Positions 3,342-9,119 of a stretch of 9,119 nt of DNA are shown here, piece after piece (within the stretch, counting starts at the first letter, position 1; the number at the start of each line of letters is the position of its first letter). The notes beneath the pieces were generated by a model that worked only from the letters and a program-made list of their open reading frames with translations, was not told the origin of the DNA and did not search any database. A program made the translations under genes and the position numbers. The DNA is from a virus (taxonomy: Duplodnaviria > Heunggongvirae > Uroviricota > Caudoviricetes). The stretch covers positions 1-9,119 of IMG/VR virus record IMGVR_UViG_2698536443_000014. The stretch is one strand, 5' to 3'.

Positions 3342-3731
3342 TCAGGCGGCTGCACCCGCCGTTTTCTCGTACTTACTGATAGTGATCTCGACCTTCCCTC
3401 CCGGGATAACCGATCCCCACTCAACCAGCATTCTTTTCACCTGACTGTCGTCTTCCCACACACCCGCGTGGGTCAGGGCGTCAAACAGCGCCTTGTTATA
3501 GTTGTCCAGATCGCGGATCCGGTTATCCGGAGGAAACAACACGATCTCCACTGAAGCAGGTGCCGACGTTGGTTTCGGCAGACGACGTAACTGCTCAATG
3601 ATGGCGGCACACGCCGCGCTCTGGAATTTTCGTCCCGCCGTGCTTATCAGGCTCTTACCAGCAAACGCCCCTTTGTTGGGGTGTCGCCAGTACGTGTTCA
3701 CGCTGGGCGGAAACGGCAGAATCAGCTTCAT
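3342..3731 (-). CDS. rusA: Holliday junction resolvase RusA (crossover junction endodeoxyribonuclease)
   Basis: 129-aa protein (MKLILPFPPSVNTYWRH...DNRIRDLDNYNKALFDALTHAGVWEDDSQV...) carries the RusA family signature, including the catalytic-region D-x-D-N motif. Start ATG 3731 overlaps the upstream stop (ATGA). Confidence 0.85.
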   Translation of the reverse strand: MKLILPFPPSVNTYWRHPNKGAFAGKSLISTAGRKFQSAACAAIIEQLRRLPKPTSAPASVEIVLFPPDNRIRDLDNYNKALFDALTHAGVWEDDSQVKRMLVEWGSVIPGGKVEITISKYEKTAGAAA

Positions 3732-4054
3732 ACTTTCAGGCCCCTCTCATGTAACCAGTGGGCTGCACGCAGCCTGGCGTTTTCCTCACCGGCAAGCAGT
3801 GAGCGGATAATCCCGACCGCCTCGCTGTCGTCGTCCTTCACCGCGGTATGAAGCGTGATGCCCCGGGCCACGCCACGCTTTATCGTGATGACGCCTTTTT
3901 TCTCCAGTGCGCGAAGATGCTCCACTGCTGCATTCACTGAACGGTATCCCAGCATGGTTGCCACCTCCTGATTGGTTGGCGGAAAGCCACGCTCTTTCTG
4001 GTAAGAAATCAGCATATCCAGCACCTGCTGCTGGCATTGAGTTAACGTCGTCAT
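3728..4054 (-). CDS. LexA N-terminal DNA-binding-domain-like protein lacking the S24 peptidase domain
   Basis: MTTLTQCQQQVLDMLISYQKERGFPPTNQEVATMLGYRSVNAAVEHLRALEKKGVITI resembles the LexA winged-helix DNA-binding domain (MKALTARQQEVF...[36 protein letters not shown]). The ORF is only 108 aa, so there is no autoprotease domain. ATGA overlaps at both ends. Confidence 0.65.
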   Translation of the reverse strand: MTTLTQCQQQVLDMLISYQKERGFPPTNQEVATMLGYRSVNAAVEHLRALEKKGVITIKRGVARGITLHTAVKDDDSEAVGIIRSLLAGEENARLRAAHWLHERGLKV

Positions 4055-5194: not shown

Positions 5195-6136
5195 TCACCC
5201 CCTGAATCCTGCCGGGATCTGGCTGTAGTCCACGTTGTCGTAACTGGCTTTGAAGTACGGGTCCTCGCGTTTTTCGGTGTACGTGCTGACGGACGGCGAT
5301 AAGCGCAGGGAAAGCTCATCCCATTTTTCCCGCAGCTTCGACGGGCTGAGCACGTTACGGCACCAGAACGGATCGCGACTGACGCGGCTGTACATCTCGC
5401 AGATTTGTTTATGAGTATGACCATCCTGCACACACATCAGGCGAATTTCGTTTGCCCAGGCTGTCCAGTTCGGTTCTTTGGGACGAACCACCTCGCCGTC
5501 ACATTCGGCAGCCTGCTCGTACAGGGCAATGATTTTTTTCCAGAGCCACTGTGCGCAGGTCAAATCATCCTGCGTCCCCCACTGGCGCTTTTTAGGGCTG
5601 AATACAACCGCATCAGGATGGCGAGTTAAAAAATCCTGTTCATCCGTCTGCGTGTCCGGTTGCGAAGCGTCCGGACGAGAAGGTTTTTTATCTGACGGAT
5701 CATGTTTTGATTTTACTGACGGATCCCCGCCAGATTCTGACGGGTGAAAACCCGCTTTTTTACCAGATTTCGACGCATCAAATTTTGACGGGTCAGATTT
5801 TGATGCGTCAGATTTTGACGGGTCAGAATCTGACAGTTGAGAAAATGCCGCTGCCTGAAGCTTCGCAACGTTAAGCTGATAAACATTCGACGCATTGCGG
5901 TTACCCTGGCGACGCGCCTTACGCGTTAACCAGCCTTCTGCTTCCAGCCGTGCGATAGCCGTTCTGACGGTACTCATCCCCGCGCCAATCTGGCGGGCAA
6001 TGGTTTCAATTGATGGCCAGCACACACCTTCGTCATTACTGAAATCAGCCAGGCGGGCCATAATTGCCACGCTGGATAACTTCATGCCTGACGCAGCGCA
6101 ACCATCCCATACATAGCCGGTTAATTTAGTGCTCAT
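5195..6136 (-). CDS. Phage replication initiation protein (N-terminal HTH domain, repeat-rich linker, DnaT-like C-terminal region)
   Basis: The N-terminus (LSSVAIMARLADFSNDEGVCWPSIETIARQIGAGMSTVRTAIARLEAEGWL) is a winged-HTH typical of prophage replication initiators. The central linker is encoded by tandem repeats. The C-terminal region resembles the DnaT-like domain of prophage replication proteins, called from memory. It occupies the O-gene position after cro/cII. Confidence 0.7.
   Translation of the reverse strand: MSTKLTGYVWDGCAASGMKLSSVAIMARLADFSNDEGVCWPSIETIARQIGAGMSTVRTAIARLEAEGWLTRKARRQGNRNASNVYQLNVAKLQAAAFSQLSDSDPSKSDASKSDPSKFDASKSGKKAGFHPSESGGDPSVKSKHDPSDKKPSRPDASQPDTQTDEQDFLTRHPDAVVFSPKKRQWGTQDDLTCAQWLWKKIIALYEQAAECDGEVVRPKEPNWTAWANEIRLMCVQDGHTHKQICEMYSRVSRDPFWCRNVLSPSKLREKWDELSLRLSPSVSTYTEKREDPYFKASYDNVDYSQIPAGFRG
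5690..5836. repeat. Iteron-like direct repeats (candidate replication origin) inside the initiator gene
   Basis: About five tandem copies of a 14-15-bp unit (TCAGATTTTGACGGG, TCAGATTTTGATGCG, TCAAATTTTGACGGG, CCAGATTTCGACGCA, TCAGAATCTGACAG) between about 5762 and 5836, plus degenerate copies with the TCTGACGG core at 5691, 5715 and 5735. In the protein frame they encode S-D-x-S-K repeats. Confidence 0.5.
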
Positions 6137-6145
6137 GACCGACCT

Positions 6146-6484
6146 CTATTTCCCTGAATTTACGACGAAACTGTTCGAGCGGACTGAAGCATTCATGCTC
6201 ATAACCTTCGCGGAGGTAGATAACCCGTTGTGTTTCCGGCTCCCAACGAATGACTCTGACGGGCACTCCGTAGTGATCTTTGAACCAGCGGTTAACTTGT
6301 CGCAAAGGACTGTCTCCTTCTGCCGGTTGAAATCACCCACAGCCCACTCTGCAAAGCTGTGGGTTACAATTTCCCTGTCACCTGGTACATTCACTGCATA
6401 GCAATATTCCACCTTCGCTTTTCCACCCGGAACAGGAAGCGCAATCAGTTGCGAGCGACGGTAGTGTGTTGTTAAACTGTTCAT
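6146..6484 (-). CDS. Hypothetical protein (C-terminal half doubtful; possible frameshift or overlapping gene)
   Basis: Start ATG 6484 overlaps the stop of the upstream CII-like gene (ATGA), which supports a real gene start. The N-terminal ~50 aa look protein-like, but the C-terminal half is Ser/Thr-rich and low-complexity, while an alternative frame over 6126..6305 looks far more protein-like (see findings). Confidence 0.4.
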
Positions 6485-7065
6485 GCGTTAGTTTCTCCAC
6501 AACCAGAAGCAATCGACGCCACGACGCCCGGAGCTGCACACTCGCGGGCGTTACTCTTTTCCGGCGCACAAAAAACACGAAATAACAGTGTTAAATGCTC
6601 CTGCCACTTCGCCATTACTTGGTAGCTGTTCTCTTCGATTTGCTCACGCTCAGCCTGGTCAATAACTCCATCAGCAGTTGCCTTGCGTAAGTACTGGGAA
6701 TGCTTGCCAATCCATTCTATTGACTCCATCAGCCGCTGATTAATGTCACCATTGTCAATGTCATCAATGACCACCAGCGGCACAAACACCCCATTACTAC
6801 GACGGGCTATTGCATCTGTTACATGCCTGGTACCACTGGCATCCTGTAAAACCATGGCCCACTCAAGTGGAAAAATTTGATCCCCACCGCTACGCAGTCT
6901 GTTATGCAATTGATCTTTTGCTGGGGTGATATCATCAGATTTATACAAACCAAGAATTTCTGCTGCTTCCTCATAGCCATGAGGTAAATCAGCAATCGTT
7001 CTTCGTATTGCTGCCACCAGCCATGCTGGTTGTTTATCAACTTTCCATTCAGGTTCTTTACCCAC
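6481..7065 (-). CDS. CII-like early regulatory protein (CP76/YdaT-type position and size), putative
   Basis: 194-aa ORF immediately downstream of Cro, GTG start at 7065 preceded by TGAGGA at about 6-nt spacing. The position is that of lambda cII or of the YdaT/CP76-type CII equivalents of E. coli cryptic prophages. The family call is by context and memory only. Confidence 0.45.
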
Positions 7066-7092
7066 GGTTAATTCCTCATTTCTGTGGTGTTT

Positions 7093-7290
7093 TTATGCCG
7101 CAGCACTGTTAGTCTTTTGATATAAAGACACGTCAACTTTCAGTTTCCCGTTAGTAATTTTTTCTAACTGGTACGCTCGGCCTTCAGGAATAATCTCAGG
7201 CCACTCTGAAACAGACGGATGCTTAATACCTAGGGCTTCGGCGGTTTTACAAACTCCGCCGAAATAATTAATCACGTCGGATTTCCGCAT
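7093..7290 (-). CDS. cro: Cro-like repressor (P22 Cro type)
   Basis: MRKSDVINYFGGVCKTAEALGIKHPSVSEWPEIIPEGRAYQLEKITNGKLKVDVSLYQ aligns along its length with P22 Cro as I recall it (MYKKDVIDHFGTQRAVAKALGISDAAVSQWKEVIPEKDAYRLEIVTAGALKYQ). It is divergent from the repressor gene across the operator region, with Shine-Dalgarno GGGAGA. Confidence 0.8.
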   Translation of the reverse strand: MRKSDVINYFGGVCKTAEALGIKHPSVSEWPEIIPEGRAYQLEKITNGKLKVDVSLYQKTNSAAA

Positions 7291-7321
7291 TTCTGTCTCC
7301 CGTTAAATTACGTTAAGCAGA

Positions 7322-7387
7322 AATGTAGGATATCCAACATGCTAATGTCAAGAATCCTACATGGGCATGTGGTAGGATTGCCTACAT
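7322..7387. promoter_or_regulatory. Right operator region (OR) with pR-like promoter (minus strand) overlapping the presumptive pRM
   Basis: 18-bp near-palindrome ATGTAGGATATCCAACAT at 7323..7340. Further half-site copies ATCCTACAT at 7354..7362 and GTAGGATTGCCTACAT at 7372..7387. On the minus strand: -35 TTGACA (complement of 7346..7351), 17-bp spacer, -10 CTACAT/TACATT (complement of about 7322..7328), directed toward cro. Confidence 0.6.
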
Positions 7388-8039
7388 GATGAACATGAGT
7401 GATCGTATTCGCCAAAGGCGAAAAGAACTGAACCTGACACAACAAGCACTGGCTGATTTGACTGGTGTGAACCGTGTCACGGTTACTGGATGGGAAAAGG
7501 ACGACTACCAACCAAATGGAGCCAACCTTCAAGCCCTAGCCAACGCACTTAAATGCGATCCTCTGTGGCTTGTTAGCGGAAAAGGCTCGCCTGAACCAAA
7601 GATAAATCTAAAACCTGAAATATTCGCAGTTAAAAAAGTCCCCCTAATCTCGTGGGTTCAGGCGGGTTCATGGACAATGACGGAGCCTGGTGTCAGGAAA
7701 GAAGATGCTGAAGAGTGGGTTTATACTACCGCCCTTGTATCAGAAATGGCATTTGCACTACGGGTCCGTGGTGATTCAATGACCAATCCCCTCGGCTCAC
7801 CATCGATACCAGAAGGTTCTATCGTTATCGTAGAGCCAGATATTATTGATACAGAGTGTATTAACGGAAAAATCGTTGTTGCCCATATCAATGGTGGGCA
7901 AGAAGCGACACTCAAAAAATTTGTTGAGGACTGGCCGAACAGGTATCTCGTCCCACTAAATCCTAACTATAAAACTATTGAATGCGGTGAGAACTGTAGA
8001 ATAGTTGGTCTTGTCAAACAAGTAATAATGGATTTTTGA
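7386..8039 (+). CDS. cI: CI-like prophage repressor (HTH-XRE N-terminal domain, S24 LexA-like peptidase C-terminal domain)
   Basis: N-terminal HTH (IRQRRKELNLTQQALADLTGVNRVTVTGWE). C-terminal S24 autopeptidase signature with GDSM serine motif and a downstream lysine (LRVRGDSMTNPL...EATLKKF). Starts at the edge of the operator region, consistent with a short-leader pRM transcript. Confidence 0.85.
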   Translation: MMNMSDRIRQRRKELNLTQQALADLTGVNRVTVTGWEKDDYQPNGANLQALANALKCDPLWLVSGKGSPEPKINLKPEIFAVKKVPLISWVQAGSWTMTEPGVRKEDAEEWVYTTALVSEMAFALRVRGDSMTNPLGSPSIPEGSIVIVEPDIIDTECINGKIVVAHINGGQEATLKKFVEDWPNRYLVPLNPNYKTIECGENCRIVGLVKQVIMDF

Positions 8040-8060
8040 CACATCTTCCTCACTATCGCA

Positions 8061-8085
8061 AAACCGGGGTATCCCCGGTTTTTTT
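8061..8085 (+). terminator. Rho-independent terminator after the repressor gene
   Basis: Stem ACCGGGG (8063-8069) / CCCCGGT (8073-8079) with a 3-nt loop, followed by a T7 run (8079-8085), 22 nt after the repressor stop codon. Confidence 0.6.
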
Positions 8086-8101
8086 ATGAGCCTATCTTTT
8101 T

Positions 8102-8155
8102 ATGTAGGATAACCAACATAAACTCTTGACACTCGCATGTTGGATATCCTACATT
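8102..8155 (+). promoter_or_regulatory. Left operator region (OL) with pL-like promoter
   Basis: ATGTAGGATAACCAACAT (8102..8119) and ATGTTGGATATCCTACAT (8137..8154, the exact reverse complement of the OR site at 7323..7340) flank and overlap -35 TTGACA (8126..8131), a 17-18-bp spacer and -10 CTACAT/TACATT (8149..8155). Spacer and -10 are almost identical to the pR-like promoter. Confidence 0.55.
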
Positions 8156-8313
8156 TGTTTTTAGAGTTGTGGTGAATGCGCAGGCTGATGCGCGAAAGAC
8201 ATTGCAGCTATTGCGGAAAAGAGCTGTTCGGCGGGGCAATTAAACGCCCGTGAGAGTCTGAAATAACCGCAAGCCGGAGATCAGCATCGGTCACCACAGC
8301 AGCCACTGCTTTG

Positions 8314-8360
8314 GCGGTACCAGTTTGTACACTTGCTTCCGGCTGGTACCGCTCTTTTTA
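8314..8360 (+). terminator. Long hairpin plus T-run in the pL leader (terminator-like; boxA-like CGCTCTTTTTA overlaps its 3' side)
   Basis: Perfect 10-bp stem GCGGTACCAG (8314-8323) / CTGGTACCGC (8343-8352) with a 19-nt loop, followed by TCTTTTTA. CGCTCTTTTTA at 8350..8360 resembles the boxA consensus (CGCTCTTTA). The long loop makes efficient termination uncertain. Confidence 0.4.
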
Positions 8361-8482
8361 CAAAACAGAGAAGAGCATCACCGGACGACGGGCTCATAAC
8401 CCAATCCACCCGGGCGGCTGCCACCGCAGGTGTTCTTCTCTGTTTTGTGGAGAAACTAATATCTTGTGCAGAGGAAAATAGA

Positions 8483-9029
8483 ATGAAATTACCAAAATTT
8501 CGTAACGCAATTGTGTACCGAGCAACATTACCTAGTATACAGGCTATTGAAGGTCATCTTCTCGAACTCCCTTATTCTGAAATCGGGGAAACAGAATTTT
8601 CACGGTCCTCTTTTGTAGAGAATCCTGTCACTGGTGAACTGGTAACTCCGATATCTGGTGGGTACGCAATGGTAATCCGTCATGATCAGAAAATAATTCC
8701 CCGACATGTCGTCATGAAAGAAGCTAATTCTCGAATCCGAACAATCGAAAATATGTCCGGGAATAAATTAAAGCGTGCCGAACGACTGGCCATTATTGAT
8801 AACGTACGAGTAGATCTATGCAAACAGGCATTTGTTAAGTCTACGCTGATTCTTGCATTGTACAGCACTGATGAGAAATTATTGGTAATCAACACAACCA
8901 ATAAAATAATAGCCGGTATGGTATGCGCAATGCTGATTAAGGTTGTCGGTTCAGTGAAAACAGAAACAATCAACATCAGTGATATCAAGAATGGACTGAC
9001 TACACGCCTGAATAACTACATCAATGGTG
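8483..9029 (+). pseudogene. RdgC-family recombination-associated protein gene, 3'-truncated by IS1 insertion
   Basis: ATG 8483 with Shine-Dalgarno GAGGAAAA; the track's 8333 start is a TTG extension through the leader. N-terminus MKLPKFRNAIVYRA matches the RdgC N-terminus (MLWFKNLMVYRL as recalled), with further colinear similarity over about 180 aa. The frame ends at a TAA (9032..9034) supplied by the IS1 terminus; full RdgC is about 300 aa. The gene is AT-rich. Confidence 0.6.
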
Positions 9030-9119
9030 GGTAATGACTCCAACTTACTGATAGTGTTTTATGTTCAGATAATGCCCGATGACCTTGTCATGCAGCTCCA
9101 CCGATTTTGAGAACGACAG
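9030..9119 (-). mobile_element. IS1 insertion sequence, terminal 90 bp (right inverted repeat end; element continues beyond window)
   Basis: 9030..9119 (GGTAATGACTCCAACTTACTGATAGTGTTTTATGTTCAGATAATGCCCGATGACCTTGTCATGCAGCTCCACCGATTTTGAGAACGACAG) matches the reverse complement of the IS1 right end, including the terminal inverted repeat GGTAATGACTCCAACTTATTGAT, with about 2 mismatches. Compared from memory. Confidence 0.85.
9045..9119 (-). CDS. insB: IS1 transposase InsB, 3' end (partial; start lies beyond window end)
   Basis: The minus-strand frame reads ...LSFSKSVELHDKVIGHYLNIKHYQ followed by a stop (TAA, complement of 9045..9047), which matches the InsB C-terminus as I recall it. Confidence 0.75.
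   Translation of the reverse strand: MSFSKSVELHDKVIGHYLNIKHYQ

Follow-up and report, generated by a model that had tools for sequence, protein, structure and literature searches.

A probable lambdoid lysis/lysogeny switch of P22/phage 21 architecture with its own operator word in an Escherichia coli prophage

Copies of one 18-bp palindrome bracket a repressor-like gene in a stretch of viral DNA of 9,119 nucleotides (the window; positions are counted from its first letter). This locus raises the question of whether the palindromes are the operators of an immunity region, which proteins read them, and whether the region is unusually compact, as an earlier note on the same DNA had proposed. We consider it highly probable that positions 7093-8160 constitute the lysis/lysogeny switch of a lambdoid E. 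coli prophage, built on the P22/phage 21 immC architecture and using an operator word of its own. The immunity module described in the earlier note, a cI-type gene bracketed by OR and OL, is supported by protein homology, by islands of conservation at the sites in four other genera and by covariation between recognition helices and half-sites.

Genes, operators and promoters of the module

The open reading frame at 7386..8039 (+) encodes a cI-type immunity repressor of 217 aa with matches to the Pfam families HTH_3 (E 1e-15) and Peptidase_S24 (E 4e-25); its RefSeq name is "LexA family protein" (WP_000981537.1). The recognition helix, VNRVTVTGW, corresponds to residues 28-36 of the N-terminal HTH, and the C-terminal S24 domain keeps Ala93-Gly94, Ser131 and Lys177. 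Matches in the PDB include lambda cI (3bdn, E 7e-25) and the N-terminal domain of P22 c2 (2r1j/3jxb, E 6e-14), and in the alignment to 3bdn the segments VQAG, GDSM and TLKKF of the repressor lie opposite VQAG, GNSM and TFKK of lambda. Judged by this homology, the repressor is a P22 c2-like HTH domain joined to a lambda cI-like self-cleaving S24 domain. On the opposite strand, cro (7093..7290, -) encodes a protein of 65 aa belonging to the P22 Cro fold family (Pfam P22_Cro, E 8e-22; PDB 1rzs, P22 Cro, E 7e-12). The second gene of the pR operon, at 6481..7065 (-), encodes a YmfL-family cII-like regulator (Pfam Phage_CP76, E 1e-6; 56% identity to e14 YmfL), which RefSeq names "YmfL family putative regulatory protein". 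A search for literature on YmfL and the operator returned nothing relevant.

The cro and cI genes are divergent and a multi-site operator lies between them. A motif search of the window found every operator coordinate of the earlier note to be correct: the exact palindrome ATGTAGGATATCCAACAT at 7323-7340 on the + strand (OR1), its exact reverse complement ATGTTGGATATCCTACAT at 8137-8154 (OL1), and a copy with one mismatch, ATGTAGGATAACCAACAT, at 8102-8119 (OL2). With up to three mismatches allowed, the palindrome had no match in 200 dinucleotide-preserving shuffles. Two further stretches, 7354-7362 and 7372-7387, had been described as half-site copies; their positions hold, but both are parts of full 18-bp sites. 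The 9-mer ATCCTACAT, exact at 7354-7362, is the good right half of OR2 (7345..7362, ATGTCAAGAATCCTACAT), a weak site whose left half overlaps the pR -35 hexamer, and 7372-7387 is the core of OR3 (7370..7387, TGGTAGGATTGCCTACAT). OR is therefore a classical tripartite operator, and its three 18-bp sites fill the 95-bp gap between cro and cI.

The sites were ranked with a position weight matrix built from the sites of relatives only. Its top five hits in the 9.1-kb window were OR1 (29.5 bits), OL1 (29.4), OL2 (26.8), OR3 (22.3) and OR2 (11.2), followed by a sixth-ranked site at 1.2 bits. In shuffled windows, the best matrix score was 6.8 bits on average and reached 13.3 at the 95th percentile, so that the score of OR2 falls inside the shuffled-sequence range and is not significant alone; the support for this site is its position between OR1 and OR3. 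No third OL site was found with the same matrix in the whole window, leaving two sites downstream of cI. The centre of OR2 lies 22 bp from that of OR1 and 25 bp from that of OR3, and the OL1 and OL2 centres are 35 bp apart. The central 4 bp differ among the sites (ATAT, ATAA, ATTG, AGAA) and, by analogy with P22, probably grade affinity. A literature search found no paper containing the operator strings.

The five sites overlap two near-identical sigma-70 promoters. A promoter scan returned TTGACA-18 bp-TACATT on both strands, each with 10/12 consensus positions, confirming the near-identical pR-like and pL-like promoters that had been noticed around the repressor gene. Of these, pR (7322..7351, -; -35 at 7351-7346, -10 at 7327-7322) points toward cro and is predicted to drive cro, ymfL and the early-right operon as far as Q. 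OR1 overlaps its -10 hexamer and spacer, and OR2 its -35. The second promoter, pL (8126..8155, +; -35 at 8126-8131, -10 at 8150-8155), points away from cI into the early-left operon, with OL2 upstream of its -35 and OL1 overlapping its spacer and -10. For pRM, the consensus scan yields no + strand promoter within OR, and the two candidates are both weak: a -10 hexamer TAGGAT at 7373-7378, from which a leaderless mRNA would start at 7386, or a TACATG at 7383-7388. Because OR3 reaches across the ribosome-binding region of cI into its start codon, it is the presumed autoregulatory site.

A predicted intrinsic terminator of cI occupies 8060..8085 (+), with a GC stem at 8064-8069/8073-8078 and a U-run at 8079-8085 (folding energy -15.2 kcal/mol, z = -3.96). 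It was missed by a simple terminator scan and is clear by folding. A perfect hairpin with a T-run, different in each case, occurs at the same place in every relative; the hairpins of two relatives were read directly off the sequence and not from folding.

These elements suggest the following course of events. In a lysogen, by analogy with lambda and P22, repressor dimers would occupy OR1/OR2 and OL1/OL2 and so exclude RNA polymerase from pR and pL, whose -10, spacer and -35 elements coincide in part with these sites. Transcription of cI would come from a weak pRM, OR3 would cover the cI translation start, and the terminator at 8060-8085 would keep cI transcripts out of pL. SOS-activated RecA would then bring about self-cleavage of the repressor at Ala93-Gly94, upon which pR and pL would fire and Cro, binding to the same sites, would shut off cI.

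Conservation, specificity and alternative readings

In Enterobacter, Pantoea, Erwinia and Providencia relatives (repressor identity 65-90%), the sites and the hexamers stand out as islands of identity in diverged DNA. The OR1 sequence is identical in these relatives, the pR and pL hexamers are invariant, and OR3 is invariant or nearly so across all relatives, including mEp390 with its repressor identity of 60%. Within the Pantoea clade, pi is 0.42 at the third codon positions of cI and 0 at the outer operator positions; the diversity profile of OL2 in this clade is 0000000 3333 0000000, with variation confined to the central 4 bases and none in the 7+7 around them. The P22 repressor contacts its operator at positions 2-7 and 12-17 and makes no contact at 8-11 (PMC4267663). 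The operators described here share this P22-type feature, being symmetric 18-bp sites with constant outer positions and a variable centre at 8-11.

The half-site covaries with the recognition helices of both proteins across three clades. A half-site ATGTAGG goes with the cI helix GVNRVTVTGWE and the Cro helix HPSVSEW; ATGTAAC, in Serratia and Morganella, with GVSRVSVTKWE and HPAVCRW; and AATTAAG, in the P22/21 clade, with GVSNVAISQWE and DAAVSQW. This pattern agrees with the claim of the earlier note that the operator word sets immunity specificity, and we propose that cI, through its helix VNRVTVTGW, and Cro, through HPSVSEW, recognise the operator at the outer positions ATGTAGG/CCTACAT.

The same covariation bears on the notion that the palindromes are bound by another regulator, either the LexA-DNA-binding-domain protein encoded at 3728-4054 or host LexA, and belong to some other SOS control. 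The window does encode this second LexA-like DNA-binding protein, of 108 aa, but the half-site changes together with the helices of cI and Cro, the arrangement of the sites is that of the characterised P22/21 switch and, on direct reading, they are unlike the E. coli LexA box, CTGT-N8-ACAG. We therefore regard binding by another regulator as very improbable. Just as improbable is the proposal that the ~35-bp inverted repeats formed by pR/OR1 and pL/OL1 are mainly recombination substrates of a swappable or invertible cassette, their operator role being secondary. The two promoter-operator blocks are indeed near-identical, inverted and 814 bp apart, and from 8163 on, directly outside the repeat and just beyond the pL -10, the DNA is homologous to phages with a different immunity type, so that the module boundaries coincide with the repeats. 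However, the orientation of cI relative to cro and ymfL was the same in all 43 loci with enough flank, with no inversion of the cI segment between the repeats seen among them, and the repeats are conserved at the expected repressor and polymerase contacts and variable in the linkers, which is the pattern of a protein-binding constraint and not of recombination homology.

Natural variation in the module concentrates in the linkers beside the operators, and this is its sole unexpected element. Among 55 near-identical regions, the linker from OR1 to the pR -35/OR2 (7341..7344) has nine haplotypes, with per-site pi up to 0.475, and the linkers from OR2 to OR3 (7363..7366) and from the pL -35 to OL1 (8132..8136) have eight haplotypes each. 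The three neighbouring sites 8133-8135 show seven of the eight haplotypes that they could form. Each of the 11 linker sites counted is polymorphic, several of them with three alleles, against about 5% of the third codon positions of cI; the variation at 7341..7344 and 7363..7366 is also seen in complete genomes. It is possible, though we advance this only tentatively, that these linkers of 3-5 nt beside operators and -35 hexamers are sites of recurrent mutation in almost clonal regions. If the recurrence reflected repeated selection, populations would be tuning the strength of pR, pL and pRM or the cooperativity of the repressor, and hence spontaneous induction, with specificity untouched. If it reflected a hot spot caused by permanently bound repressor, it would parallel, in bacteria, the raised mutation rates at occupied eukaryotic transcription-factor sites.

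Compactness, context and distribution

The immunity region had also been called unusually compact. The interval between cI and OL holds no rex, sieB or other gene, as had been noted: the cI stop ends at 8039, OL2 starts about 62-63 bp and OL1 ends 115 bp past it, and the interval contains no gene-like ORF of at least 20 aa, the terminator hairpin being its only feature. In lambda, rexA and rexB lie between cI and OL, and a distance of about 62 bp from the cI stop to OL2 could suggest that this module is a compacted derivative which has lost rex- or sieB-like genes. The comparison refutes both the gene loss, to which we assign next to no probability, and the claim of unusual compactness. Measured from the cI stop to the pL -35, the interval is 86 bp here, against 39 bp in e14, 43 in Morganella, 74 in mEp390, 77 in Pantoea, 79 in Enterobacter, 89 in phage 21 and 93 in Providencia; the window thus stands near the long end of a range of 39-93 bp. 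The direct order of cI stop, terminator, OL and pL is common to every relative examined, including phage 21 and e14. To our knowledge, rexAB between cI and OL is a lambda peculiarity and not the norm for the P22/21-like group.

Downstream of pL, no plausible ORF for an N-like gene was found in 8156-8482, and a terminator lies in the pL transcript's path at about 8313-8347. A putL-type antiterminator as in HK022 was considered for this structured, N-less leader and rejected, as it has no sequence similarity to the pL-nun interval of HK022 (local alignment score 16, against 18.4 +/- 2.5 for shuffles). A search of Rfam (4227 families, E ≤ 1) gave no match in the immunity region or the pL leader; elsewhere it returned three sub-threshold chance matches, including Termite-leu, which is the cI terminator on the wrong strand. 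IS1 interrupts the early-left operon of the prophage in the window; the element that retains the switch may thus be defective.

Of 5426 complete E. coli genomes, 140 contain the region at an identity of at least 99%; it also occurs in Stx phages, where its repressor is annotated just as "LexA family"; carriers of the immunity group include Stx1 and some Stx2c phages. A search of IMG/VR with the OR1 sequence gathered 98 stretches with exact OR1, a set in which the invariance of OR1 is partly by construction because it was retrieved with OR1 as the query. A cI homologue starts 63-64 nt downstream of 87 operator occurrences, and the OR1-OL1 spacing is 814 bp in most contigs with two matches. The Stx1 phage Lys8385Vzw carries the same region, and its description lists cI, Cro and cII as absent (PMC7946995), a gap in annotation that is filled by the genes and five operators named here. 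The immunity group is thus common in E. coli, and its helix and operator word are common to Enterobacter, Pantoea, Erwinia and Providencia prophages and mEp390. This is a switch of the textbook type which adds no new biological principle, and its named sites may be of use in studying how Stx phages are induced and in predicting cross-immunity.

Comparison with known switches

The comparison with known lambdoid immunity groups that the earlier note had called for yields the P22/21 architecture with a different operator word. Over 95% of its length, the repressor shows 44-46% identity to those of phage 21 and P22 (c2); structures of the P22 c2 N-terminal domain match its own, and Cro shares the P22 Cro fold. 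Spacing also agrees closely, the OR centres being 23/25 bp apart in phage 21 and 22/25 bp here, with 35 bp between OL1 and OL2 in both. As here, phage 21 has the pL -35 between OL2 and OL1, a terminator after the repressor gene and a cI start that adjoins OR3, and the P22/21 operators are 18 bp long with the outer 7+7 positions kept and the central 4 variable (PMC4267663). The half-site, in contrast, is AATTAAG in P22/21 and ATGTAGG here, and the recognition helices are VSNVAISQW versus VNRVTVTGW in cI and DAAVSQW versus HPSVSEW in Cro; the module should therefore be heteroimmune to P22/21. On these sequence comparisons, it is of the P22/21 architectural type and outside the P22/21 immunity group. 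P22 has six operators in total (PMC4267663), three of them in OL, whereas two OL sites are recognisable here. P22/21 also have an N/gene-24 antiterminator after pL, with none here, and their second pR gene is c1/cII in place of the YmfL/CP76-like gene.

Lambda shares the tripartite OR between divergent cI and cro and the position of OL/pL downstream of cI, and the C-terminal domain of its cI is homologous to that of the repressor (E 1e-22), with the Ala-Gly, Ser and Lys kept. The module differs in having neither rexAB between cI and OL nor an N gene, in a Cro of a different fold family and in operators of a different sequence, which are 17 bp in lambda and 18 bp here. The Stx phage 933W, a lambdoid switch said to have only two OL operators, has an S24 cI repressor too, but repressors of the 933W type are just ~34-36% identical. 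The 933W repressor is reported to bind adjacent sites without cooperativity (PMC3317979).

The e14 element of E. coli K-12 (ymfK-ymfT-ymfL) has the same order of repressor, divergent small regulator and YmfL (56% identical), as well as a compact run of cI stop, terminator and pL. It was rejected as the closest relative, as only YmfL is close: YmfT is unrelated to Cro here, YmfK resembles the repressor in the S24 domain only, and the operator word differs, being of the TGTACC...GGTACA type. In mEp390, whose immunity region is uncharacterised, the cro-cI gap is shorter (66 bp) and cro and the downstream genes differ, but the repressors share 60% identity and their recognition helix, the half-sites GTAGGAT/GTAAGAT are nearly the same, OR3 is identical and there are likewise two OL sites.

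Operators, promoters and genes of the switch

The coordinates given in the earlier note were confirmed: 7323-7340 carries the palindrome ATGTAGGATATCCAACAT, 8137-8154 carries it as an exact reverse complement, and the copy at 8102-8119 departs from it at one position. Searches with up to three mismatches gave zero matches in 200 dinucleotide-preserving shuffles. Of the two half-sites reported with it, the first, at 7354-7362, matches the 9-mer ATCCTACAT exactly, while 7372-7387 had to be redrawn as the core of a longer site, TGGTAGGATTGCCTACAT, at 7370-7387. The whole window was scanned with an operator weight matrix trained solely on sites from relatives in other genera; five operators ranked first and the sixth match scored 1.2 bits. 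Three lie in the gap between cro and the repressor gene cI: OR1 (7323-7340, 29.5 bits), covering the spacer and -10 of pR, the promoter towards cro; OR2 (7345-7362, 11.2 bits), overlapping the pR -35; and OR3 (7370-7387, 22.3 bits), overlapping the Shine-Dalgarno-like AGGA and start codon of cI. Past the cI stop are OL2 (8102-8119, 26.8 bits), just upstream of the -35 of pL, the promoter leading away from cI into the early-left operon, and OL1 (8137-8154, 29.4 bits), covering the pL spacer and -10. OR2 was accepted through its position alone because its score lies below the 95th percentile of shuffled-window maxima (13.3 bits).

The paired promoters that had been proposed were recovered by a consensus scan as TTGACA-18 bp-TACATT at 8126-8155 (+) and 7351-7322 (-), with 10/12 consensus positions each; the two promoter-operator blocks read TTGACAttagcATGTTGGATATCCTACATTT and TTGACActcgcATGTTGGATATCCTACATTT. 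The same type of scan gave no placement for pRM, the cI maintenance promoter. Folding identified a strong hairpin with a U-run at 8060-8085 (-15.2 kcal/mol, z = -3.96), which is predicted to stop the cI transcript upstream of OL.

The repressor gene (7386-8039, +) encodes a 217-aa product with HTH_3 and Peptidase_S24 domains, pL running rightwards in the window. The C-terminal half resembles lambda cI (3bdn, E 7e-25) and retains both the cleavage site (Ala-Gly) and the catalytic Ser and Lys; the N-terminal domain resembles that of P22 c2 (2r1j/3jxb, E 6e-14). On the opposite strand, 7290-7093 (-) encodes a 65-aa protein of the P22_Cro family (E 8e-22; PDB 1rzs, E 7e-12). The genes past cro, in order YmfL/CP76 cII-like, DUF4222, HTH replication-initiator-like, PerC-like, Dam-type methylase, LexA-DNA-binding-domain protein, RusA, KilA-N, DUF968 and Q, make up a lambdoid prophage's early-right operon.

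Two features of this operon were observed in passing. Between the methylase and RusA genes, 3728-4054 (-) encodes a 108-aa protein consisting of a LexA DNA-binding domain only, without an S24 domain, which might be a competitor of host LexA or a non-cleavable regulator. Within the replication-initiator-like gene (5195-6136, -), four tandem 15-bp repeats (CAGATTTTGACGGGT-like) at 5764-5827 look like iterons belonging to an origin that lies within its initiator gene, as in lambda O; an Rfam microRNA match at the same position was rejected as a spurious product of the tandem repeats.

The mechanism proposed here draws on established knowledge of lambda and P22, the anatomy alone being observed in the window. 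Repressor dimers on OR1/OR2 and OL1/OL2 would block pR and pL, and OR3 would mediate negative autoregulation of cI. Given the lambda-like C-terminal domain, pairwise cooperativity, possibly with OR-OL looping over 814 bp, is plausible. RecA-stimulated self-cleavage at Ala93-Gly94 would derepress pR and pL, after which Cro would occupy the same operator sites.

Conservation and operator specificity

Repressors at 65-90% identity were found in Enterobacter, Pantoea, Erwinia and Providencia, where the flanking non-coding DNA has diverged but the operators and the -35/-10 hexamers are kept and every element stays in its place; every locus has a perfect terminator hairpin, each with its own sequence. 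In the Pantoea-type clade, pi was 0.42 at cI third codon positions vs 0 at the seven outer positions in each half of an operator, and the central four positions of OL2 were variable. Such a pattern is expected from P22 repressor, whose contacts fall on positions 2-7 and 12-17 and on none of 8-11 (PMC4267663). The Erwinia tracheiphila repressor gene (locus L008, 2501-3150) has a frameshift within the C-terminal third, with the OR and OL operators intact.

The recognition helix GVNRVTVTGWE is invariant down to about 59% repressor identity, mEp390 type included, and all examined loci with this helix have GTAGG-type half-sites. In the next clade, at 52-55% identity, the cI helix is GVSRVSVTKWE, HPAVCRW replaces HPSVSEW as the Cro helix, and the operator is ATGTAAC-N4-GTTACAT in an unchanged layout. 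Phage 21/P22 have GVSNVAISQWE, DAAVSQW and AATTAAG-N4-CTTAAAT, respectively. Changes in the operator word thus go together with changes in both DNA-binding proteins, which supports the suggestion that it defines immunity specificity.

Distribution and variation of the module

Copies with at least 99% identity to the region are carried by 140 of 5426 complete E. coli genomes, by Stx1 phage Lys8385Vzw and by some Stx2c phages, under the annotations 'LexA family protein', 'Cro/CI family' and 'YmfL family'. An exact match to OR1 is present in 98 IMG/VR stretches, with a cI homologue starting 63-64 nt downstream in 87 occurrences, and the OR1-OL1 spacing is 814 bp in most of these contigs. Lys8385Vzw has been described as being without CI, Cro, CII, CIII and N (PMC7946995), yet the cI, Cro and cII listed as absent lie in the very same region, which this phage carries: MT225100 holds the cI/cro/ymfL module at 6094-7040 with 99.4% identity, labelled 'LexA family transcriptional repressor', 'hypothetical protein' and 'DNA-binding protein'. 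The module is thus poorly annotated. It is a real, well-formed and ordinary immunity switch, common in E. coli and present in some Stx phages.

Among 43 copies sharing at least 99% cI protein identity (31 haplotypes over 6520-8162, OR1 being invariant by ascertainment), variation was unexpectedly clustered in the short linkers flanking the operators. Segregation is seen at all 11 sites counted there (7341-7343, 7363-7366 and 8133-8136), several of which have three alleles, vs 11/218 cI third positions, 34/466 third positions of three genes and about 11/136 other non-coding sites (Fisher p = 1.6e-12 and 6e-11). The 12-13 linker nucleotides yield 23 haplotypes and the other ~870 nt yield 22; in ten RefSeq/GenBank records (Lys8385Vzw and nine complete E. 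coli genomes), 7000-8165 has 11 variable sites, 7 of them in linkers. The 7 of 8 possible haplotypes present at 8133-8135 cannot come from recombination between adjacent bases and so imply recurrent mutation or repeated selection. The linkers may be a mutational hot spot, or they may reflect selection that has acted repeatedly on promoter strength or cooperativity.

The sole coding site with linker-like behaviour is 7646, a synonymous position in cI (Ser87 codon TCG), which is tri-allelic (C/A/T; pi ~0.43) among otherwise identical cI genes. The window copy departs from almost all others at 7343, 7997 and 8135, T7343 and T7997 being unique and G8135 a minority allele.

The pL leader and comparison with phage 21 and P22

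The pL transcript starts with a ~320-nt leader (8163-8482), in which no plausible ORF was found. It folds strongly (-123 kcal/mol, z = -4.0), with an intrinsic terminator-like hairpin and U-run at ~8313-8347, followed by a ~100-nt hairpin (~8343-8462) in which phages of E. coli, Shigella, Salmonella and Klebsiella show four compensatory pairs. No Rfam family matches the leader, nor is it similar to HK022 putL; in SfV, ST64B and mEp460 it lies upstream of yfdP-like genes. Of 5426 complete E. coli genomes, 140 contain the whole of a 1.5-kb query (7000-8500) and 2638 match parts of it, mostly the leader. A mosaic junction is seen at 8163, where homology to phages with other immunity types (mEp460, Stx2a_1447 and others) begins directly past the pL -10; relatives sharing the operators have a different, lambda-like leader there (CATCAACAGC...). 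The first pL-operon gene, of the RdgC family (8483-9034), is cut after ~183 of ~300 codons by an IS1 end (9030-9119) and has its stop codon within the IS1 terminal repeat, so the early-left operon of the prophage is interrupted.

The repressor ORF ends at 8039 with no credible ORF before OL, as had been noted, but the description of the immunity region as unusually compact does not hold. The distance from repressor stop to pL -35 is 86 bp, vs 39-93 bp in seven relatives or known systems (e14, 39; Morganella, 43; mEp390, 74; Pantoea, 77; Enterobacter, 79; phage 21 immunity, 89; Providencia, 93); the region had seemed compact because lambda, with rexAB, served as the reference.

The module differs from the P22/21 type in its operator word, in having only two recognisable OL sites, in a second gene of YmfL type rather than c1/cII type, and in having no N-like gene after pL. 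Its dimensions are close to those of phage 21: OR centre spacings are 22 and 25 bp vs 23 and 25 bp, OL1-OL2 centre spacing is 35 bp in both, the -35 to OL1 gap is 5 vs 4 nt, the cI ATG lies at +16 vs +18 nt from the start of OR3, and both have a terminator after the repressor gene. On these spacings and the terminator, the module thus belongs to the P22/21 architectural type.
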